From a virus (Duplodnaviria; Caudoviricetes), in the IMG/VR virus record IMGVR_UViG_2974521131_000001, positions 1-64,000 of that record: 64,000 nt of DNA. One strand, written 5' to 3'. Under the pieces are notes generated by a model. The model saw nothing but the letters and a program-made list of their open reading frames with translations, was not told the DNA's origin and did no database searches. A program made the position numbers and the translations under genes. This document shows, piece by piece, positions 2,404 to 64,000 of this stretch (position 1 is its first letter; each line of letters opens with the position of its first letter).

Positions 2404-2648
2404 TTGGCGTGGTCCCAGTCGCACGACGGGCCACCGTTGTTGGTGTAGGCGCTCTCCCAGACGCACAGCACCTTGCGACCATCGGGGAGGTCGACGTAGT
2501 GGGGCTGCGACCAGCCGGTGAAGCGGCTGCCTCCTACCGTGTTGCCGGGGGACTGGTCAGGTGCAGGTGCCACGTCACACGCGACGACCATGGCCCCGAC
2601 GGGGATCAGGAAGATGCTGGCGAGTAGTGCCTTGAACTTGCGGGTCAT
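2400..2648 (-). CDS. Lipoprotein
   Basis: Lipobox VVAC; LPDGRKVLC...SCDWDHAK; AGGAG RBS. Confidence 0.8.
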   Translation of the reverse strand: MTRKFKALLASIFLIPVGAMVVACDVAPAPDQSPGNTVGGSRFTGWSQPHYVDLPDGRKVLCVWESAYTNNGGPSCDWDHAK

Positions 2649-2655
2649 ATATCTC

Positions 2656-2865
2656 CTAGGTCTTCATGGTGGCGCGGATGGTGATCTCGCGTTCTGCTGC
2701 CCAGTCCTGGATGTGCTGGATGGCATCGTCCAGGGCCTCGAGGGCGTTTTCCAGCTCCTCTTCCGGCCCCATCTCGGTGAACCGGCGCAGGTAGTCCTGG
2801 GAGTTGTGGATGTGCCCGATGGACATCCGCAGGAACACTTCTCGAGCGTGTGGAGCGACGGCCAC
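2656..2865 (-). CDS. Hypothetical protein
   Basis: Tightly packed ORF with high GC3. Confidence 0.65.
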   Translation of the reverse strand: MAVAPHAREVFLRMSIGHIHNSQDYLRRFTEMGPEEELENALEALDDAIQHIQDWAAEREITIRATMKT

Positions 2866-2866
2866 G

Positions 2867-3016
2867 TCAGCCCTCCTTGATGTTGAGGATCAGCCCGCCG
2901 TCGGGCCTTCTGACGACGCCGTACTCGGTGCCAGCTGGGCACTTGATCTGCAGCGTCTTGGCCTTCTTGTCCCATTCGACGGTCGTTTGACCGCCGTCGA
3001 TGTTGTAGAACGTCAT
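2867..3016 (-). CDS. Hypothetical protein
   Basis: MTFYNIDGG...; start uncertain (3016 or 3067). Confidence 0.55.
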   Translation of the reverse strand: MTFYNIDGGQTTVEWDKKAKTLQIKCPAGTEYGVVRRPDGGLILNIKEG

Positions 3017-3103
3017 CTCGGACCCCTCTGCCAGTTGAAGTAGAAGACCTTGTTGGCCCGATCCCACCTGAGCTTCAGGTATCCGCCGAACACGTAATAC
3101 GTC

Positions 3104-3364
3104 TTACTGCGCATCTGCTGCCACCTTGTCCCACTCGTTTACGAACTCTTTTGCTTCGGCGAAGCTGTCGGCCACGAAGATCGTGGACAGCGCGACACCC
3201 GGCTCGGGTCGCACGAACACTCGCCAGCCGACGGGGTCGAAGCCCTCGGTCTTGCGCTTGTATCGGATGACGTAGAGAACTCGGGGATCTCGGCTGGGGG
3301 AGGCGTGGTAGACGCTGTAGCCGGGGTTGTCCTTGGAGACGTTCGTCCACTTCAGTCCAGCCAT
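3104..3364 (-). CDS. Hypothetical protein
   Basis: GGAG RBS before ATG at 3364; high GC3. Confidence 0.7.
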   Translation of the reverse strand: MAGLKWTNVSKDNPGYSVYHASPSRDPRVLYVIRYKRKTEGFDPVGWRVFVRPEPGVALSTIFVADSFAEAKEFVNEWDKVAADAQ

Positions 3365-3630
3365 GGCTGCTTCTCCATCCATGCGGCGATGTTCTGGTCG
3401 TGCTGCACCCTGCCCCAGATGCGGCAGGCCGCGAACTTGACACGGTCGCCGAGGTCGTACGGGTCGCTGATCTCACGCTCGGGGATCGTCACCGGCTCAG
3501 CGGCCTTCGCTCCACCGTCGGTTACGAGGGTGACCCTGATACCCCTCCCGTCTCGTGTGGTCCAGGAGTTCTCACGCTGGACGGACCACTTGAGCCCTTC
3601 GGGGAGTTCGGGCATCTTGACGTTGCTCAT
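3352..3630 (-). CDS. Hypothetical protein
   Basis: ATGA overlap start; high GC3. Confidence 0.7.
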   Translation of the reverse strand: MSNVKMPELPEGLKWSVQRENSWTTRDGRGIRVTLVTDGGAKAAEPVTIPEREISDPYDLGDRVKFAACRIWGRVQHDQNIAAWMEKQPWLD

Positions 3631-3875
3631 GACCACTCCACCGCCACTTCGGGGACCAGCTCGGGCCAGATCCCATCTCCCACCGGCCCGTCATCGGGGA
3701 TGGTGACGGTGAGGATGCGGATGTCTCGCTTCGTCCCGTGGGGGACGCCGTCGCGGCGGAAGTTGACCGCATCACCCTTGCGGGTGAATGCCCGCGTCTT
3801 CTGGGTGTAGTAGCCCAGCGCGAGGTGAGGCTTGCCCCCATCGAACTCAACGAGGATGTTGACTTGTGCGCTCAC
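3627..3875 (-). CDS. Hypothetical protein (distant paralog of 4248-4475)
   Basis: GTGA overlap; DIRILTVTIPDDGPV motif. Confidence 0.7.
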   Translation of the reverse strand: MSAQVNILVEFDGGKPHLALGYYTQKTRAFTRKGDAVNFRRDGVPHGTKRDIRILTVTIPDDGPVGDGIWPELVPEVAVEWS

Positions 3876-4066
3876 AGGAACTCCAAAAGGCTCTTGAGGT
3901 CGTAGACAGCTGAGTCGTAGTAGGCCAGCCGATCTCGACGCTTGTTTGAGATCGCATCGGGGTTGTCGTCGGCAACATCCACAGCCTTGCTGATGCGTGC
4001 GGATGCCGACTTCATGTCCTCTGCTGCCTGTTCGAGGAGGTACTTGATCTCCTTCTTGGCGCTCAT
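3872..4066 (-). CDS. Hypothetical helical protein
   Basis: ATGA overlap; MSAKKEIKYLLEQ... Confidence 0.7.
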   Translation of the reverse strand: MSAKKEIKYLLEQAAEDMKSASARISKAVDVADDNPDAISNKRRDRLAYYDSAVYDLKSLLEFL

Positions 4067-57087: not shown

Positions 57088-57159
57088 ATGGGCGTGGCTT
57101 GATAGGAAAGCAGCGGTCTCCAAAGCCGCCACACGCAGGTTCGAATCCTGCCGCCCGTG
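57088..57159 (+). tRNA. tRNA-Trp(CCA)
   Basis: ATGGGCG/CGCCCGT acceptor, CTCCAAA loop, TTCGAAT T loop, G73. Confidence 0.85.
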
Positions 57160-57239
57160 CGTTCGTTCGGTCACGACCGAACACCGAACACCTGAATCTT
57201 GATAACTACATAGCGATTATGTTTCAAATGTTTTTCAAT

Positions 57240-57615
57240 GGGGCTGTACTGGTTTCGATTGCGAACCGAGTCCATGGAAGCGTGCCGGGAAGATACGCCC
57301 GTAACAGTTCAACCTTATAAGCGCTGCTTTTGTCGCTGCTGATTACGCCGTAGGTGCGTGATCCGGTGGGGTTCAGAGTTTTACCCGTTTTCTGAACTAT
57401 CCCACCGTCATTCAAACGGGGAACCCTCGCAGGAATTGAGCTGATACGTCGCAAGAGGCTAAATAGCGGAAGTCACCAGCAGAGTCGGAATGGAGACCGG
57501 CAACTGAGCGTGTCGGGCGTCCCACCCCGATGCGACGGAGCGAGTGGGACTACGCACGTAGAAGAATGAGTACAGAGAACGTAAGACGCGGGTTCGATTC
57601 CCGCCAGCTCCACCA
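57240..57615 (+). ncRNA. ssrA: tmRNA; tag (A)AAFVAADYAVGA
   Basis: GGGGCTG...CAGCTCC-A-CCA with G3:U70; T arm; ATAAGC then tag ORF 57323-57361. Confidence 0.95.
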
Positions 57616-57736
57616 GGCCTGGTCGCAGGTTCGAATCCTGCTGCGAGAGTGACGAATACATGGTCTGCAGCCATGTACGAGTTCCCGACGGTTCGCTACC
57701 GACGTGTTCGTATAGCTCAGTGGTTAGAGCAGGGCC
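57616..57736 (+). ncRNA. Circularly permuted tRNA-like element A
   Basis: 3' half (57616-57649) precedes 5' half (57706-57736); acceptor 6/7 and anticodon stem 5/5 complementary. Confidence 0.65.
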
Positions 57737-57912
57737 GATAGACCGGTTTCCTACCTCCGTTCAAAGGGTAGGTGGTGGGATCTGGACCCTAGGCAGTCCC
57801 GATCAGTCCCCGCGAGGACAATGCGTTATAACCCCGTAGCGGTCGACGGTGAGCCGCTGGAGTGGCGACCGATTTGCCTGGCGTTCCCGACCGCCGTCAT
57901 CCGTCGGGATAT

Positions 57913-57985
57913 TGGCCTGTAGCTTAATTGGTAGAGCAGCGAGCTGTTAACTCGCCAGGTGAAGGTTCGAATCCTTCCTAGCCAG
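57913..57985 (+). tRNA. tRNA-Asn(GTT)
   Basis: Canonical D, anticodon and T arms; two acceptor mismatches; G73. Confidence 0.85.
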
Positions 57986-57989
57986 CATT

Positions 57990-58063
57990 GCGGGAGGTCG
58001 CCGGTTCGAATCCGGCCACGGGTCAGATAGCACCCGTGTAGCTCAGTCTGGTAGAGCGCCCGC
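57990..58063 (+). ncRNA. Circularly permuted tRNA-like element B
   Basis: GCGGG-AGGTC-T arm-CACGGGT-8-nt loop-ACCCGTG-TA-D arm-G-CCCGC; all stems Watson-Crick. Confidence 0.8.
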
Positions 58064-58470
58064 GCCAACTTTGGGGCATGGCCCATAAGTCGGGGAGACC
58101 CGGCGAAGGGGGAGAGTGACATCTCCTCGCCCGCAAGGGTTCCCCATGCAATGTCGCTGCAGTGAAGATCGTTTACGGCGGTCTTCGAGATGCGAGCTAC
58201 ACCTAGGTGTCCAGGGCCGTGAACCGGTGGGACGCACCATGCCGTACGTGCGGCTGAAAGGGTTATCGAGCGAGTGTGGGTATGCAGGACAAGGTGGAAG
58301 AACAGTCTGAGGCTTGGCAGCCAAGGGCGGTCACCATGATCGTTTGTGAACTGGTCGACGGGTCAGGGAATACGGGAGAATGCGATGTACCTCGCCAGGG
58401 TGAAGCATCTGAGGTGTGAAGCATTCTGTGCCCCAAAAGGGTTCGGAACTTCATGGGGAAGCACATCTCA
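58064..58470 (+). ncRNA. Large structured non-coding RNA domain (GOLLD-like candidate)
   Basis: No credible ORF; terminal multibranch domain GAGGTGTG...CACATCTC enclosing two stems. Confidence 0.45.
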
Positions 58471-58474
58471 CGTC

Positions 58475-58547
58475 AAACATTTAGCTCAGCAGTAGAGCAT
58501 CTCTTTGGAATAGAGACGGCGGCGGTGCGATTCCGCCAATGTAACCA
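58475..58547 (+). tRNA. Atypical tRNA, anticodon GGA (Ser) without long variable arm
   Basis: TCTCT-TTGGAAT-AGAGA; T loop TGCGATT; 5-bp acceptor; encoded CCA. Confidence 0.55.
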
Positions 58548-58840
58548 AGCAAAAGTTCTTCCCCTGCCGAGAAGCAAAAGCGCCTTAATCCCCGACTGTG
58601 GAGCAGAATCGGGGCCGTCACGAGCCCGCAAGGCGACGGCGGTTTGTAGGCAAGTAGTGCAGCCATGGGACGGCCATCCTAACGGCGAAGCGAAAGTCGC
58701 AGAGTAGCTTTCGGTATGACGAGTGGTTCACGTACGAACCAGGCGTTGCACGTACTCGGGGGACCGAGTGGACAAGTCGGGAATCCATAATCCGACGAAA
58801 GCGTGTGGTCGTGGCGGTTTAGTCTCTAGCCCGCCCAACA
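58548..58840 (+). ncRNA. Structured intergenic RNA of unknown class
   Basis: Several hairpins (CCCCGA/TCGGGG, GCGA-AAG-TCGC, GNRA-like loops); no credible ORF. Confidence 0.35.
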
Positions 58841-58842
58841 AA

Positions 58843-58914
58843 CGGAATGTGCAGCCTAATGGTAAGGCGGGGAGTTCGCGACTCCCGATCCAGGTTCGAG
58901 TCCTGGCGCTCCGG
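58843..58914 (+). tRNA. Atypical tRNA, anticodon CGC (Ala) on a Pro-like body
   Basis: GGGAG-TTCGCGA-CTCCC; C1-G72; no G3:U70; 2-nt acceptor bulge. Confidence 0.55.
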
Positions 58915-59003
58915 CGCTACCCTGTGTGTGCCAGATGCACCCCCGCTGAAAACACAACTATTTCAGGTTGTTTGTTTGCCGGAAACAGCGGGCAGGGTTT
59001 CAA

Positions 59004-59082
59004 TCTCGTCGCGAATTGGCGATCACAGCTGGCTGTAAACTAGCTCCTTCGGGTGTGCAGGTTCGACTCCTGACGGCGAGAC
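59004..59082 (+). tRNA. tRNA-Tyr(GTA), atypical D arm
   Basis: AGCTGG-CTGTAAA-CTAGCT; CC-TTCG-GG variable arm; TCTCGTCG/CGGCGAGA acceptor. Confidence 0.7.
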
Positions 59083-59196
59083 GTAGCGGTGGTGCAACAC
59101 CGCAGGGCGAGGCTGGACGGACCCGCGCACGACACAAGGGCCAGCAGACCCTCGGCTAGTGGAGAGGTGAGCCGACCGAATTGCCTTTCCAGCTAA

Positions 59197-59267
59197 TCCA
59201 GGTTGGTGTAATGGCAGCATGGCAGAATCTGACTCTGCCGATTGAGGTTCGATTCCTTGCCCTGGAT
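59197..59267 (+). tRNA. tRNA-Gln(CTG)
   Basis: GCAGA-ATCTGAC-TCTGC; T1-A72. Confidence 0.8.
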
Positions 59268-59358
59268 CGAGCAGGTAGATGATAATGGCGTAACCGGTGC
59301 TAATGCTGCACTCGCTGAGGATCCTCGGCGCTACCGATCAAAGGTTATACGTCCCAAT

Positions 59359-59434
59359 CAGTCTGAGGTGTAAGTGGTTGCATGAGGCGTTTGGATCGCC
59401 GGGGTTGGGAGTTCGAGTCTCTCCAGACTGACCA
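59359..59434 (+). tRNA. tRNA-Pro(TGG)
   Basis: CAGTCTG/CAGACTG, A73, encoded CCA; TTTGGAT loop. Confidence 0.9.
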
Positions 59435-59471
59435 TCGGGTTGTCGGTAAACACGGGTGTGGAACCGTCATT

Positions 59472-59554
59472 GGAAGGATCCGCTGAATGGTCGGCAACCG
59501 GCGTCGAATACCGGGGCTGGTGCAAGCCAGGGGGTTCGATTCCTCATCCTTCCG
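59472..59554 (+). tRNA. tRNA-Ser(CGA)
   Basis: GGAAGGA/TCCTTCC, G73, long variable arm. Confidence 0.85.
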
Positions 59555-59558
59555 CAAT

Positions 59559-59642
59559 GGAGAATGGAGCCCACCAGGTGGTGGGGACCGATTGCTAATC
59601 GGCTCGCAGCCCCGCTGTGTGGATCGTGCCCACTCTTCTCCG
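59559..59642 (+). tRNA. tRNA-Ser(GCT), non-canonical T loop
   Basis: TTGCTAA loop, long variable arm, T loop ATCGTGC, G73. Confidence 0.7.
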
Positions 59643-59643
59643 C

Positions 59644-59763
59644 GTGAACGCATACAAGTGCAGTGCATGTAAGCGCCCTGTCGGTCTGATGGTCGACGCG
59701 AAGGGCGAGCCCGAGATCTTCAAGTGCCCGAATACCGGGCGTGTGGCCACGGCCACGAAGTAG
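59644..59763 (+). CDS. 39-aa zinc-ribbon-like peptide in tRNA array
   Basis: MNAYKCSACKRPVG...FKCPNTG; high GC3; no RBS. Confidence 0.6.
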   Translation: MNAYKCSACKRPVGLMVDAKGEPEIFKCPNTGRVATATK

Positions 59764-59832
59764 TTCCTAGGATGCGCCGTCGAGCTTCAAAATGCTCGTA
59801 TAGCCGAGGCGCAGAAGAGTATCGGCTCCAAT

Positions 59833-59907
59833 CGGTTCGTAGCTCAGTTTGGCAAGAGCGCTGGCTTGAAACCCCAGAGGCCCCAGGTTCGACTCCTGGC
59901 GTTCCGG
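59833..59907 (+). tRNA. tRNA-Phe(GAA)
   Basis: Canonical D and T arms; TTGAAAC loop; two U-U acceptor mismatches. Confidence 0.75.
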
Positions 59908-60047
59908 CGTAAAAGGGAAACCAGATCCGTCCGCTACTGGTGAAAAGCGGCGCAGGCCACGGAGATACATAGGCAGCCTGGGAAAATTGCCCCCGTGTAA
60001 CAACTCGAAGCCGATGACCCAGTGAGGCGATAAACAACCTGGGCTAT

Positions 60048-60119
60048 TGCGCGGTAGTGAAATCGGGATCACAGGAGTTTCATACGCTTCCATTATGGGT
60101 TCGAGTCCCATCTGCGCAA
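60048..60119 (+). tRNA. tRNA-Met(CAT), elongator type (or Ile2)
   Basis: TGCGCGG/CTGCGCA; TTCATAC loop; lacks initiator features. Confidence 0.8.
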
Positions 60120-60199
60120 CGACGTATCAGGTTCTGCAAGGGGTAGGTAAAAGGGTCCACGCCCCAGTGGTCCGTCCTGGTACACAACGAAAGGCAAGT

Positions 60200-60400
60200 A
60201 TGACCGCGAAGCTTCGCACTGGTATCGCCCACATCGACATCGTCCGCACGGTGAACGATCTGATCGACCAGGTCGAGGAACTGAAGGAGTTCTGTTACGC
60301 GGTGGCTGACGAGCCCGCTGAGGCCCCGAAGAAGGCCACGGCACGCAAGGCCCCGGCCAAGAAGGCTGAGGACGCCAGCGAGGCTGACAAGGGGGAGTAA
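60200..60400 (+). CDS. Hypothetical protein with Lys/Ala-rich tail in tRNA array
   Basis: AAGG RBS; very high GC3. Confidence 0.75.
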   Translation: MTAKLRTGIAHIDIVRTVNDLIDQVEELKEFCYAVADEPAEAPKKATARKAPAKKAEDASEADKGE

Positions 60401-60408
60401 TCCCCATT

Positions 60409-60487
60409 CCCGATGTTGAGCAGTGGAGCGCTCAATGGGCTACGAACCCATATTCGCATGCAGGTTCGAATCCTGTCATCGGGTCCA
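60409..60487 (+). tRNA. tRNA-Arg(ACG)
   Basis: CCCGATG/CATCGGG; ATGGG-CTACGAA-CCCAT; encoded CCA. Confidence 0.88.
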
Positions 60488-60489
60488 TA

Positions 60490-60562
60490 CCTCTTGTAGC
60501 TCAATCGGTTAGAGCAGCGGTTTGTGAAGCCGCAGACCACGGATCGTAACCGTGCAGGGGGA
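60490..60562 (+). tRNA. tRNA-His(GTG) lacking G-1:C73
   Basis: GCGGT-TTGTGAA-GCCGC; T loop ATCGTAA; A73. Confidence 0.75.
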
Positions 60563-60567
60563 CCGTG

Positions 60568-60666
60568 TTGGTGTGCCCATATCGCCCCGCGCCATGGCTA
60601 GCGGGATCATCGACGTACTTGGAAGGCAGGGGTGGCCACCCTTCGGGTTCGAATCCCGGCACCAGC
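60568..60666 (+). pseudogene. Degenerate class-II tRNA-like element
   Basis: TTGGTGT/GCACCAG acceptor, intact T arm, variable hairpin; no proper anticodon stem. Confidence 0.4.
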
Positions 60667-60671
60667 CCTAT

Positions 60672-60743
60672 GTCGAGATGACAGAGTGGCGATGTGACGG
60701 TCTGCAAAGCCGATCTACGCCGGTTCGAATCCGGCTCTCGATT
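60672..60743 (+). tRNA. tRNA-Cys(GCA)
   Basis: CTGCAAA loop; U73. Confidence 0.88.
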
Positions 60744-60755
60744 CTAGGAGAGACT

Positions 60756-61007
60756 GTGGGAGCACAACTCTCAGCAGCCGAAGCCGCGAGGATGCGAGCT
60801 GCACTCGACTGGGTGGAGAACCACCCGGTCAGCAAGGACCGCCACGTGCAGCTGGTGGCGGCACTCGTTGACGAGATGCGTCTAGCTGAAGACACTTCGG
60901 ACCTGCGTCCGTGGTTCAACCGGCTGATTCAGATCAACGACGAACTTGATAGAACTCACGGTCGGATTCCCACGGTGGATGACTGGCCGGGAGATATGGA
61001 TCTGTAG
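60756..61007 (+). CDS. Hypothetical protein in tRNA array; 3' end overlaps tRNA-Leu(TAG)
   Basis: AGGAG RBS, GTG start. Confidence 0.7.
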   Translation: MGAQLSAAEAARMRAALDWVENHPVSKDRHVQLVAALVDEMRLAEDTSDLRPWFNRLIQINDELDRTHGRIPTVDDWPGDMDL

Positions 61008-61071
61008 CCCAAATGGAAGAGGCAACAGGCTTAGACCCTGTTCAGTGTGGGTTCGACTCCCTCCAGATTCA
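60998..61071 (+). tRNA. tRNA-Leu(TAG), short variable loop
   Basis: ACAGG-CTTAGAC-CCTGT; A73. Confidence 0.8.
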
Positions 61072-61075
61072 CTCT

Positions 61076-61150
61076 GCTCGACTAGGCAAACTAGGCAAAG
61101 CCGCAGGCCTCAAAAGCCAGTGTTTGCGAGTTCGAATCTCGCGTCGAGTA
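61076..61150 (+). tRNA. tRNA-Leu(CAA), short variable loop
   Basis: CTCAAAA loop; GCTCGAC/GTCGAGT; A73. Confidence 0.8.
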
Positions 61151-61188
61151 CAACGCTGTATTCCCGAGGCGCTATATCGGGAAGCCAT

Positions 61189-61259
61189 GGGCTCGTAGCT
61201 GAGTGGTTTAGCTCCGTCCTCTTAAGTCGGAGACGTAGGTTCGATTCCTACCGGGCTCA
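61189..61259 (+). tRNA. tRNA-Lys(CTT)
   Basis: CTCTTAA loop; canonical T arm. Confidence 0.85.
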
Positions 61260-61260
61260 C

Positions 61261-61336
61261 TGTGATGTCGTCCAACGGTTTAGGGCACCGATCTGATACA
61301 TCGGAAACCAGGGTTCAACTCCCTGCTTCACTACCA
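61261..61336 (+). tRNA. tRNA-Ile(GAT)
   Basis: CCGAT-CTGATAC-ATCGG; encoded CCA. Confidence 0.82.
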
Positions 61337-61340
61337 CTTC

Positions 61341-61407
61341 GCGGCAGTTCCGGAAAGTGCTGGGCGTCCTAAGCCCGAGCAAGGGTGTTCGAGTCACCTC
61401 TGTCGCA
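61341..61407 (+). tRNA. tRNA-Arg(CCT) with truncated D arm
   Basis: GCGGCAG/CTGTCGC; TGGGC-GTCCTAA-GCCCG; only 13 nt between acceptor and anticodon stems. Confidence 0.6.
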
Positions 61408-61424
61408 CAACACAATTCAACATC

Positions 61425-61499
61425 GGGGTATTCATCTAGTCTGGCTCAGGATGCGACACTTCCACTGTCGTCACGAGGGTTCGAATCCTTCATACCTCA
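61425..61499 (+). tRNA. tRNA-Gly(TCC)
   Basis: CGACA-CTTCCAC-TGTCG; A73. Confidence 0.85.
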
Positions 61500-61562
61500 C
61501 GAGGCGTCTCGCCCTCTAACGCAAAGCGGCCTAAGTCGCGATAGCCGTTGCGAGACAACTAA

Positions 61563-61634
61563 TCGGGATTAGCTCAGTGGAAGAGCGGCTGGTTTACACC
61601 CAGCGCGTGGGGAGTTCGATTCTCTCATTCCGAA
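61563..61634 (+). tRNA. tRNA-Val(TAC)
   Basis: GCTGG-TTTACAC-CCAGC; A73. Confidence 0.88.
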
Positions 61635-61695
61635 CGTCGACCTGACGAGGTCACCGGGGACCGGGTACCCGGCTTAGCGGCAAACACCCGTCCAG

Positions 61696-61773
61696 GCTGG
61701 ATTTGCTCATGTTGGCTTGAGCACCTACCTAGTAAGTAGGAGTACGTCGGTTCGATTCCGACATCCAGCCCCA
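61696..61773 (+). tRNA. tRNA-Thr(AGT)
   Basis: CCTAC-CTAGTAA-GTAGG; G at -1, C73, encoded CCA. Confidence 0.82.
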
Positions 61774-61852
61774 TGCCCTGTTCGTCTAACGGCAGGATTC
61801 CTGGGAGTTGGTCCCAGGGGATGGAGGTATCGAATCCTCCACGGGGCATCCA
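61774..61852 (+). tRNA. tRNA-Gln(TTG), atypical loops
   Basis: CCTGGG-AGTTGGT-CCCAGG (G33); 8-nt T loop; encoded CCA. Confidence 0.65.
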
Positions 61853-61854
61853 AT

Positions 61855-61927
61855 GGGGGTGCATGTTCCTTGGGGGCGACGGATCCTTGCAAGATCTGTG
61901 TGGTGGGTTCAATTCCCATCATCTCCA
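61855..61927 (+). tRNA. tRNA-Ala(TGC)
   Basis: G3:U70, A73, CTTGCAA loop. Confidence 0.88.
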
Positions 61928-62050
61928 CGGCGGGTGCGGGCTGTCAGATAACCAATGCTGGCCCGCACCCGACCCAGTATGCAGATCGTAGTCTGTAAGG
62001 GTACGAAATGCATACTCACACATAATAGGTCGCGTAGGCGACCATTTAAT

Positions 62051-62123
62051 CCCGATGTCATCTAGTGGCCTAGGATGCCGCCCTGTCGAGGCGGTCACGC
62101 GAGTTCAAATCTCGTCGTCGGGA
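62051..62123 (+). tRNA. tRNA-Asp(GTC)
   Basis: CCGCC-CTGTCGA-GGCGG; A73. Confidence 0.85.
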
Positions 62124-62183
62124 CGGTAGTTTGCGGTGATCTAGATGGCGATGAGCGTTAGCCTCGCCATCGAAAACCGCTCT

Positions 62184-62254
62184 GGTTCATTGGTGTAATG
62201 GCAGCATCCCAGGTTCTCAACCTGTAGGCAGGGGATCGTAACCCCTATGAACTA
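62184..62254 (+). tRNA. tRNA-Glu(CTC)
   Basis: TTCTCAA loop; T loop ATCGTAA. Confidence 0.75.
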
Positions 62255-62258
62255 CGCA

Positions 62259-62781: not shown

Positions 62782-62975
62782 TGCCCGCTCTCGGAGCCCT
62801 GGTCGTCAAGCCGTATCCCGGCCAGGAGATGTGGGTGCAGGCCCTCGCTGACGGCGACTACGAGGTCGGTGTGCAGTTCAACAAGAACCAGTACACGATG
62901 ATCGAAGTCAGCCGCGAGCAGTTGGAGCAGTTCTCCACGAACATCATTGCGGTTCTGCTCGATACGGGCCTGTGA
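62781..62975 (+). CDS. Hypothetical protein
   Basis: TGATG overlap. Confidence 0.7.
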   Translation: MPALGALVVKPYPGQEMWVQALADGDYEVGVQFNKNQYTMIEVSREQLEQFSTNIIAVLLDTGL

Positions 62976-63049
62976 ACCCGCTCGTCTTCATCATCGTCCT
63001 CTTCCTGATGGCCCTCGCACTGGCCATCCTCGTGAACGGAACTACATGA
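62972..63049 (+). CDS. 25-aa membrane peptide
   Basis: GTGA/ATGA overlaps; MNPLVFIIVLFLMALALAILVNGTT. Confidence 0.55.
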   Translation: MNPLVFIIVLFLMALALAILVNGTT

Positions 63050-64000
63050 GCACAACCCTTGCCCCGAAGGTCATCTCGTTCGCCAGCGAGATCGACCAGG
63101 CAACGATCGATCAGGCGAAGCAGATCGCGTCGATGCCGTTCGTCCACCCTCACTTGGCGCTGATGCCGGATGCCCACTCGGGCAAGGGGTCTGCTGTGGG
63201 GACGGTGATCCCGACGCTGGGTGCCGTGATCCCTGCTGCGGTGGGTGTGGACATCGGCTGCGGCATGATCGCGGTGAAGACCCGCTTCACGCTGCTGGAC
63301 ATCGATGAGCGCCGCCTACGCCTGGACGTTCTGCGTCGTCAGATCGAGGAAGCGATCCCGCTTTCACCCGGCAACTACAACTCGACGCTGTCGCGGTTCT
63401 CGTTCACCCGCAAGAAGCACGAGGAGCTGATCCAGCTCCAGCAGACGAACGACGTGGACCTGTCTCATTCACCGAAGTGGATGGAGCAGCTGGGCTCACT
63501 CGGCGGTGGTAACCACTTCATCGAGCTGTGCCTGGATGACGAAGACAACGTGTGGCTGTTCCTGCACAGCGGTTCTCGCGGTGTGGGTAACAAGATCGCC
63601 CAGGTCCACATCAAGGCTGCGCAGGCGTACTGCGAGGAGAAGCGTCAGACGGTTCCGCAGTCACGGTTCCACCTGCCCCACAAGGATCTGGCATTCCTTG
63701 AAGAGGGCACCATCCAGTTCGACTCGTACATCAAGGAACTCGAGTGGGCGCAGCGCTTCGCGATGCTGAACCGCGCCGAGATGATGGACCGCTACGTCGA
63801 GGTGTTCGCGTGGTGGATGGGCGTGCAGGCTCAGCGAGTCGAGCTGCAGCGCGTGAACACCCACCACAACTACACCGTGCCGACCGAGATCGACGGCGAG
63901 CGTGTGTGGTTGACGCGTAAGGGCGCTGTGGACGCCACTGAGGGCAAGCTGGGCATCATCCCCGGCTCCATGGGCACCCGGTCCTACATCGTGCGCGGTA
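63046..64000 (+). CDS. rtcB: RtcB RNA ligase (truncated at window end)
   Basis: MPDAH.GKG..VG, VGVDIGCGM, LGSLGGGNHFIEL, HSGSRG, HHNY, RKGA, PGSMG. Confidence 0.97.
   Translation, partial: MSTTLAPKVISFASEIDQATIDQAKQIASMPFVHPHLALMPDAHSGKGSAVGTVIPTLGAVIPAAVGVDIGCGMIAVKTRFTLLDIDERRLRLDVLRRQIEEAIPLSPGNYNSTLSRFSFTRKKHEELIQLQQTNDVDLSHSPKWMEQLGSLGGGNHFIELCLDDEDNVWLFLHSGSRGVGNKIAQVHIKAAQAYCEEKRQTVPQSRFHLPHKDLAFLEEGTIQFDSYIKELEWAQRFAMLNRAEMMDRYVEVFAWWMGVQAQRVELQRVNTHHNYTVPTEIDGERVWLTRKGAVDATEGKLGIIPGSMGTRSYIVRG

Follow-up and report, generated by a model that had tools for sequence, protein, structure and literature searches.

The RNA array of the phage

The stretch of DNA analysed here (the window, 64,000 nucleotides) was assigned by BLAST to a Cluster M mycobacteriophage (Vilmaviridae, Mclasvirinae), and the genome record of this phage is complete at 83,724 bp. 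The relatives found by BLAST include MrMagoo, Estes, Aziz, GenevaB15, Bongo, PegLeg, Reindeer, Nanosmite and SlimJimmy, as well as three M. abscessus prophages. With the upstream 69-aa ORF as the query, the matches were only three Cluster M records that were already known.

ARAGORN and Rfam located an RNA island at 57088-62255, in which all RNA genes are co-oriented. It comprises 21 tRNAs serving all 20 amino acids, a tmRNA, and a GOLLD RNA with a tRNA-Ser inside it. HNH endonuclease genes lie on both flanks of the array. The gene for an RtcB RNA ligase, about 5 kb downstream of element A, marks the end of the tRNA array and is followed on its 3' side by genes encoding a dual-specificity phosphatase, a SLOG protein and a metallophosphoesterase, with a serine integrase farther on. 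The main features are listed below.

57240-57615, + strand: phage tmRNA (ARAGORN, with the tag AAFVAADYAVGA; Rfam RF00023, 100.8 bits)
57616-57736, + strand: element A, permuted tRNA-like module
57737-57786, + strand: A-rich single-stranded tail GATAGAC (7 nt), followed by a conserved wcaG-like hairpin
57990-58063, + strand: element B, sister module, a perfect permuted cloverleaf with an 8-nt acceptor loop
58409-58832: GOLLD RNA (Rfam, 182.5 bits)
62947-64000, continuing beyond the window, + strand: RtcB RNA ligase gene (Pfam PF01139, E 2.6e-79)

According to both ARAGORN and Rfam, the tmRNA ends in ...CTCCACCA at 57615, so that its encoded CCA (57613-57615) abuts element A.

Two further observations concern the annotation of such arrays. 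Neither ARAGORN nor the Rfam tRNA model called a tRNA-like sequence at 61341-61407. Its acceptor stem pairs at 7/7 positions (GCGGCAG/CTGTCGC), its T arm reads GGGTG-TTCGAGT-CACCT, TGGGC-GTCCTAA-GCCCG is a possible anticodon arm (anticodon CCU, Arg), and an 11-nt stretch replaces the D arm. Sub-threshold matches of 30-39 bits to RF04321, the Rfam family for two-piece (permuted) tmRNA, occur at the loci L001-L008 (around 1520-1780; in L008, 2399-2632). They run from the tRNA-Trp T arm into the beginning of the ordinary tmRNA and are an adjacency artefact.

Anatomy of element A

The initial annotation had proposed a permuted tRNA-like module at 57616-57736, straight after the tmRNA CCA, and the order of parts that it gave was confirmed in the sequence. 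From 5' to 3', element A consists of the 3' strand of an anticodon stem, a variable loop, a T arm, the 3' strand of an acceptor stem and a 56-nt insert with two hairpins, after which come the 5' strand of the acceptor stem, a D arm and the 5' strand of the anticodon stem.

57616-57620, + strand: anticodon-stem 3' strand GGCCT, forming the closing helix of the module with 57732-57736
57621-57624, + strand: variable loop GGTC, whose last base, C48, pairs with D-loop G15 (Levitt pair)
57625-57641, + strand: T arm GCAGG-TTCGAAT-CCTGC, aligned to the T arm of the YrlA model
57642-57649, + strand: acceptor 3' strand TGCGAGA (57642-57648) and a discriminator-like G (57649)
57650-57705, + strand: 56-nt insert closing the acceptor stem, with two hairpins
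57657-57677, + strand: insert hairpin 1, TACATGG/CCATGTA with the loop TCTGCAG (sequence, RNAfold and covariation)
57686-57704, + strand: insert hairpin 2 (RNAfold and covariation)
57706-57712, + strand: acceptor 5' strand GTTCGTA (sequence)
57713-57731, + strand: U8 and A9 (TA), D arm GCTC-AGTGGTTA-GAGC (57715-57730) and A26
57732-57736, + strand: anticodon-stem 5' strand GGGCC, paired with 57616-57620

Both pairings that had been put forward hold. The closing helix (GGGCC with GGCCT) is paired at 5/5 positions, one of them a G-U, and the acceptor strands (GTTCGTA with TGCGAGA) are paired at six of seven, with two G-U pairs and one G.A. None of the long-insert relatives has a Watson-Crick pair at acceptor positions 1 and 2, which are G.A/U.G here and G.U/U.U in five relatives; G+1 of the 5' strand is kept in all of them. 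No CCA is encoded 3' of the discriminator. By analogy with M. smegmatis YrlA (PMC4201824), an RNase P site is predicted between 57705 and 57706.

RNAfold of the insert yields both hairpins. The minimum free energy fold of element A alone is not the cloverleaf (z -0.53), and we therefore relied on covariation. No promoter- or terminator-like site was found in the insert or around element A. We also considered the insert as coding sequence (ORF 57660-57839, 59 aa) and rejected this, because the frame is not conserved in comparison with Bongo when read by eye.

The loop of hairpin 1 always holds a 6-nt self-complementary word, CUGCAG or GUGCAC (57664-57670 in the window, and the equivalents in L003, L005, L006, L007 and L009). 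The two words differ at positions 1 and 6 with self-complementarity kept, and the chance of such a word is about 5% for a random 8-nt loop. In hairpin 2, the loops hold UAGCUA in Nanosmite and UGAUCA in prophi86-1, other relatives have at most the 4-nt AGCU, and the window has none. Speculatively, these palindromic loops could make a kissing-loop contact; in RNAfold, part of the hairpin-1 palindrome falls in the stem in 4/6 sequences and NUGCA pentaloops remain.

Element B and the region downstream of element A

Element B starts 4 nt after tRNA-Asn and ends 8 nt before the GOLLD 5' domain. Its minimum free energy fold is the cloverleaf (z -2.15), and it covaries across MrMagoo, Estes, GenevaB15, Aziz and Reindeer. 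The acceptor stem has seven paired positions in B and in the short-loop modules of the prophages described below, the exception being the B of Reindeer, with 5 pairs. The two elements thus bear out the earlier description of a shared topology with different sequences, both being permuted cloverleaves, A with the 56-nt insert and B with an 8-nt loop. They also lie directly behind tRNA-like genes, as had been noted: A begins 0 nt after the 3' end of the tmRNA and B 4 nt after that of tRNA-Asn, so that their 5' ends would be set when the upstream RNA is matured at its 3' end.

The hairpin behind element A (57744-57786; L002 2003-2040; L003 2193-2235) has the form GGUUUC-stem-...CAAAG-stem-GUGGUGG, and its stem covaries (CCTACC/GGTAGG against CCCATC/GATGGG). 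In an alignment by eye it is present in all M. smegmatis Cluster M relatives, including those that lack A. The cyanophage/marine wcaG RNA motif RF01761 matches it with 28.4 bits (E 0.0039) in the window and 21.9 bits in MrMagoo, against a gathering score of 42; the resemblance is to one hairpin of that motif. The tmRNA 3' end CCACCA (57610-57615) is perfectly complementary to the conserved UGGUGG (57773-57778) after the hairpin. To judge by the sequence, this pairing could enclose A in the precursor and mask the tmRNA CCA, or it may be due to chance. A-rich tails of the GTTAAAC or TGTAAAC type follow the closing stem in many modules (57737-57743 in the window, L008 2946-2952, L030, L084, and L054 from an unrelated 150-kb phage) and may serve in cleavage or as a linker, or be what is left of an ancestral anticodon loop. 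Farther on, 57787-57912 is conserved and structured. A match to the sul1 RNA motif RF03058 just before tRNA-Asn (57856-57913; 27 bits against 36.2, E 0.01) is probably a chance one.

Statistical support and covariation

A scanner for the permuted layout returned exactly two instances, A and B, on both strands of the 64-kb window. The control, in which real 3' halves were followed by shuffled sequence, gave 0.12 per array, and whole-window shuffles gave 0. When the halves were set in normal order around a borrowed 7-nt loop, ARAGORN called a tRNA in 12/12 modules. It made no tRNA call on modules in their native order, nor when the halves of A and B were exchanged, which indicates that the halves of each module are cognate.

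Six long-insert (A-type) modules were aligned with MAFFT without structural guidance and tested against the permuted cloverleaf plus the two insert hairpins. We found 94.4% of cells paired, compared with 83.2% in shuffles, and 13 pairs changed on both sides, compared with 4.7; this number was reached by 0/500 shuffles. Controls with slid partners gave 33-48% pairing. Compensatory pairs number 2-4 in each of four helices, namely the T and D stems and the two insert hairpins. The T-arm helix is 100% paired with changes on both sides in 3/5 pairs, the D stem varies from GCTC/GAGC to GTGT/GCAC, and the two insert hairpins are 100% paired with 3 compensatory pairs (helix 4) and 92.9% paired with 4 (helix 5). 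The closing helix is 100% paired in the six relatives with one compensatory pair, and it covaries fully against the modules of the M. abscessus prophages.

Across 12 modules from the two slots, 241/251 cells are paired and 15/21 pairs are compensatory, in a segmentation that was guided by the structure and leans towards it. A second table on this segmentation, with the same leaning, has the Levitt pair 15:48 as G15:C48 or A15:U48 in 11/12 modules and retains U8, A14, GG (G18G19) and T54..A58. Chen et al. reported the same 15:48 covariation for YrlA (PMC4201824). With the T-loop/D-loop elbow and the 15:48 pair kept, element A should adopt the L-shape of a tRNA, and the sequence comparison supports its being a selected RNA of that form.

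Distribution among related phages

A module lies 3-4 nt behind the tmRNA discriminator in eight related phages and prophages, both M. smegmatis phages and M. abscessus prophages. The version with a 55-57-nt insert occurs in the window, Bongo/PegLeg, Reindeer, Nanosmite, SlimJimmy and prophi86-1, and a version with a 6-11-nt loop and entirely different stems in prophiGD54-2 and prophiT49-2. Element A is cleanly absent from four close relatives. In MrMagoo and Estes, the hairpin that trails A in the window follows 3 nt after the tmRNA, and in GenevaB15 and Aziz an unrelated 71-nt insert precedes this hairpin. Element B is present in MrMagoo, Estes, GenevaB15, Aziz and Reindeer and absent from Bongo, PegLeg and SlimJimmy, in which tRNA-Asn and CATT join the conserved GOLLD 5' domain directly. 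This pattern indicates that the modules behave as cassettes, and with A missing in four close relatives and B in three, neither is essential.

No relative, with or without the module, has an ordinary tRNA in the slot of element A. The initial annotation had argued from the two divergent copies for a selected architecture rather than a rearrangement scar and had proposed a search for compensatory changes in related phages. Such changes were found, and the relatives either keep the permuted module with them or lack it cleanly, which upholds that argument.

Other sequences also occupy these slots. Inserts that are not tRNA-like occur in both slots, in GenevaB15 (L001 2050-2120; also in Aziz) and in Nanosmite (L006 2455-2545), and they share a motif of the type CTGCGCACCAG...GGGTAGG. 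The occurrence of inserts with a shared motif after the tmRNA and after tRNA-Asn marks the spacers of the array as exchangeable cassette positions. The tRNA-Leu(aag) annotated in GenevaB15 (L001 2340-2408; also in Aziz) consists of the 5' half of B and an insertion of about 75 nt with a T-arm-like hairpin. Its acceptor and anticodon stems barely pair and Rfam makes no call, so that it was probably annotated in error or represents what remains of a decayed second 3' half.

Relation to YrlA RNAs and Ro60

YrlA RNAs are Y RNAs of bacteria and phages that are bound by Ro60/Rsr; they are known in mycobacteria and mycobacteriophages, and in Salmonella YrlA lies in one operon with rtcB (PMC4201824; bioRxiv 10.1101/312249). 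In a search of Rfam with relaxed thresholds, the YrlA family RF02553 matched element A with 28.5 bits (E 7e-4, model positions 24-84 of 114) and element B with 43.6 bits (E 3e-8, positions 23-85), both below the gathering score of 69 bits. The alignments are limited to the tRNA-like core, with positions 1-22 and 86-114 unmatched. In both elements we found the strand order of YrlA with its loop-closed acceptor stem and the same tertiary nucleotides, including the 15:48 covariation. At the level of sequence, the closest known thing to element A is the circularly permuted, acceptor-closed tRNA-like domain of the YrlA Y RNAs, and the topology itself is already published for YrlA. The initial annotation was right that the permuted architecture is real and did not recognise its topology as that of this known domain.

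The differences from YrlA lie in what surrounds the core. The Ro60-binding helix, formed by the 5' and 3' ends of YrlA, is absent from A and B, and the tmRNA and tRNA-Asn stand in place of its 5' strand, respectively. The Ro60 handle motif GNCGAAN0-1G is absent beside the modules in the window and in 10 relatives, and there are only chance matches inside GOLLD. Both elements are embedded in a tRNA array, A abutting the tmRNA CCA, and A has its 56-nt two-hairpin insert in the acceptor loop. Sequence searches of the complete 83,724-bp genome for TROVE, Ro60-vWA or a homologue of the Ro60 of Xylella phage Usme returned none; 5/5 Cluster M-like records likewise have no TROVE/Ro60 homologue. No unassigned ORF of at least 350 aa, the size of Ro60, lies beside the array, and the neighbouring ORFs belong to other families. 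With the Ro60-binding helix absent and no phage Ro60 gene detectable, element A would work independently of a phage Ro60.

A phage locus that does combine the two came to light through element B, which is 82.6% identical over 67 nt to a YrlA module just upstream of the TROVE+vWA Ro60 gene of Xylella phage Usme. In Usme, L023 2001-2585 holds three YrlA-like RNAs that are unannotated (50, 25.8 and 39.6 bits), and directly downstream (2641-3960) is a gene annotated as hypothetical with TROVE and Ro60-vWA domains. The same type of Ro60/Y RNA locus is present in about 10 related Xanthomonas phages.

Chen et al. warned of dimeric tRNAs as false positives of the YrlA model (PMC4201824), and in such pairs, as in A and B, a D arm comes after a T arm; the model gives 26.4 bits to the Arg-His tRNA pair at 60435-60543. 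Unlike dimeric tRNAs, A and B have mutually complementary acceptor strands and mutually complementary anticodon-stem strands, with no 5' half before and no 3' half after them. On the sequence, A fits best as a variant form of the known tRNA-mimic domain of YrlA that lacks the Ro60 handle, not as a new kind of split tRNA.

Permuted modules in other phages

We scanned IMG/VR for an alanine-type acceptor end (GCTCCAC) followed by a T loop at the right distance, which gave 98 stretches. Of the 80 that were examined, 13 contain a cognate permuted module (score at least 19). Six of these are Cluster M-like and follow the tmRNA, five belong to unrelated phages, and two are doubtful. In the five unrelated phages, of 88-150 kb, the module starts 1-3 nt behind a tRNA-Ala and is separated by 5-6 nt from the next tRNA, at the following positions.

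L054 2402-2526; L101 12188-12256; L059 2070-2136: permuted modules after tRNA-Ala
L069 1337-1411 and L032 2125-2193, - strand: permuted modules after tRNA-Ala

Three of these five gave sub-threshold YrlA matches, and the module of L054 has a 59-nt acceptor insert, like element A. TROVE is encoded by 2/5 of these phages and RtcB by 1/5; two complete genomes of about 150 kb have neither, and three nearly complete ones have no RtcB gene. Since unrelated phages carry the modules, some without TROVE and RtcB, the modules are not confined to one lineage and require neither protein.

Discussion

We consider it fairly likely that element A is a Ro60-independent tRNA mimic of the YrlA type, that is, an RNA domain and not a broken or split tRNA gene. 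It would be transcribed together with the tRNA/tmRNA/GOLLD array, as the lack of promoter or terminator signals in and around it indicates, and its 5' end would be made by 3' maturation of the tmRNA. The RNA would fold as a circularly permuted tRNA body whose outer strands, the "anticodon stem", close the domain and whose acceptor stem is capped by the structured 56-nt insert instead of free ends. Having no anticodon loop, it would be unable to decode. The conserved non-Watson-Crick pairs at the top two acceptor positions, together with the structured insert, imply that A probably stays closed, and by its sequence this part looks more like a built three-way junction than like a free acceptor end. 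Element B and the short-loop versions, with seven paired positions, may instead be opened by RNase P and tailed with CCA, like M. smegmatis YrlA.

The function of element A we can only infer. It may act as a tRNA-shaped ligand, uncleavable in an anticodon loop, for proteins that recognise the body of a tRNA, and as candidates we favour host nucleases or toxins that target tRNAs, or else tRNA-processing enzymes. Hughes et al. proposed YrlA as a competitive inhibitor of an anticodon nuclease (PMC7790460), and the presence of a full tRNA set, a tmRNA and RtcB in one island fits the idea of a tRNA-body ligand or anticodon-nuclease inhibitor.

A processing role for element A, the main rival to this reading, seems unlikely to us, and would suit B and the short-loop modules better. 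On the model of the processed M. smegmatis YrlA and of two-piece tmRNA, RNase P would cut between 57705 and 57706, the 3' half would be trimmed to the discriminator and receive CCA, and this half, of about 38 nt, would stay paired to an RNA of about 207 nt (57706-57912) that begins with the 5' half, giving a two-piece tRNA-like end. YrlA of M. smegmatis, with its 7-bp acceptor stem, is indeed cut by RNase P and CCA-tailed in vivo (PMC4201824), G+1 is conserved in the A-type modules, and seven acceptor positions are paired in B and the prophage short-loop modules. However, the two terminal acceptor positions of A are conserved as non-Watson-Crick, its two covarying insert hairpins look like a built junction and not like a discardable leader and trailer, no CCA is encoded after its discriminator, and even the B of Reindeer has only five acceptor pairs.

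The likeness to two-piece tmRNA has similar limits. Keiler, Shapiro and Williams reportedly described two-piece (permuted) tmRNA genes in 2000. As in those genes, the 5' acceptor strand is preceded, across an intervening segment, by an acceptor/T-arm piece, and element A adjoins a tRNA-like rescue RNA; a weak partial match to RF04321 near A (21.9 bits) rests on the T arm of the real tmRNA. Element A differs in having a canonical D arm and neither a tag reading frame nor pseudoknots downstream, where we found the wcaG-like hairpin and no conserved ORF, the frame differing between the window and Bongo when read by eye. The tmRNA of the phage itself is an ordinary one-piece molecule.

We regard as very improbable a true circularly permuted tRNA gene of the Cyanidioschyzon merolae type, in which the ends are ligated by RtcB or another enzyme, the acceptor stem is opened and a decoding tRNA results. 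Wang et al. raised the possibility of permuted tRNAs for YrlA generally (bioRxiv 10.1101/312249). In this type, which is also found in some other algae and in archaea, a splicing endonuclease and a ligase circularise the transcript and a decoding tRNA is obtained (Soma 2007 and 2014, cited in PMC10085705 and bioRxiv 10.1101/312249). The gene order agrees, with the 3' half upstream of its cognate 5' half and the acceptor stem first closed by an intervening sequence; the halves are tRNA-like when de-permuted, and RtcB is encoded 5 kb downstream. In the C. merolae type, the anticodon loop lies at the termini within a bulge-helix-bulge, and this was not found in A. Its termini show no bulge-helix-bulge motif, and the flanks of the modules are unconserved (CCA, CCAA, CCTG, CTA and CGA upstream; GATAGAC, TGTAAAC, GTAAGC and others downstream). 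In the flanks of 12 + 7 modules, whose joined spacers measure 6-10 nt, we found no conserved 7-nt anticodon loop with U33 and R37. We know of no splicing endonuclease in bacteria. Ends produced by RNase P and RNase Z (5'-P, 3'-OH) are not substrates of RtcB, and here we agree with the caveat on end chemistry raised in the initial annotation. Its implied re-joining of a split or permuted tRNA by RtcB found no backing: there is no conserved loop and no isotype gap, the tRNAs of the array already serving all 20 amino acids, and the modules also occur in the three nearly complete phage genomes that lack RtcB.

To an equally slight degree, element A might be a non-functional scar left by a tandem tRNA duplication and two deletions. 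An origin of YrlA-type modules from dimeric tRNAs is plausible (bioRxiv 10.1101/312249), the arrays of this phage group gain and lose cassettes, and A and B are dispensable in some relatives. Against this stand the compensatory changes in every helix and in the tertiary pair between M. smegmatis Cluster M phages and M. abscessus prophages, and the module boundaries, which fall exactly at the anticodon stem in all copies. An origin of A from the phage's own tRNAs was considered; it has no close paralogue among them, which also counts against a scar.

It is hardly credible that the modules act as DNA, as a recombination or homing site or a protein-binding palindrome, since in spite of the 6-bp palindromes (CTGCAG or GTGCAC) in the hairpin-1 loops, the HNH endonuclease genes flanking the array and the behaviour of the modules as indel cassettes, the stem sequences vary freely with pairing kept, including G-U pairs that are meaningless in duplex DNA, and strand and spacing match the co-oriented tRNA genes.

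If element A is a tRNA mimic, a broader and rather doubtful extension is that a whole class of tRNA decoys without an anticodon, and independent of Ro60, resides in phage tRNA arrays. Keeping the body of a tRNA but not the usual cut site, such decoys would titrate host defence nucleases aimed at tRNAs, toxins of the acceptor end or tRNA-processing enzymes and would thereby protect the phage's own tRNA set and tmRNA. The CUGCAG/GUGCAC loops of A, with its two covarying hairpins, would allow self-pairing or docking on neighbouring RNAs.

To our knowledge, studies of YrlA-type tRNA mimics have dealt with them only as Ro60 partners. Here the tRNA-like domain stands alone and occurs twice in one operon, once fused to the tmRNA and once 5' of the GOLLD RNA. 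If the domain is made and stable, the tRNA-like module would have a function of its own, and these phages would offer a simple system for finding it, with a host that is not a pathogen and with natural variants in which each module is either present or missing. This array would be a useful natural test case for what the lone module does, given its fusion to the tmRNA, the pairing with GOLLD, the structured insert in the acceptor stem and the lack of Ro60.
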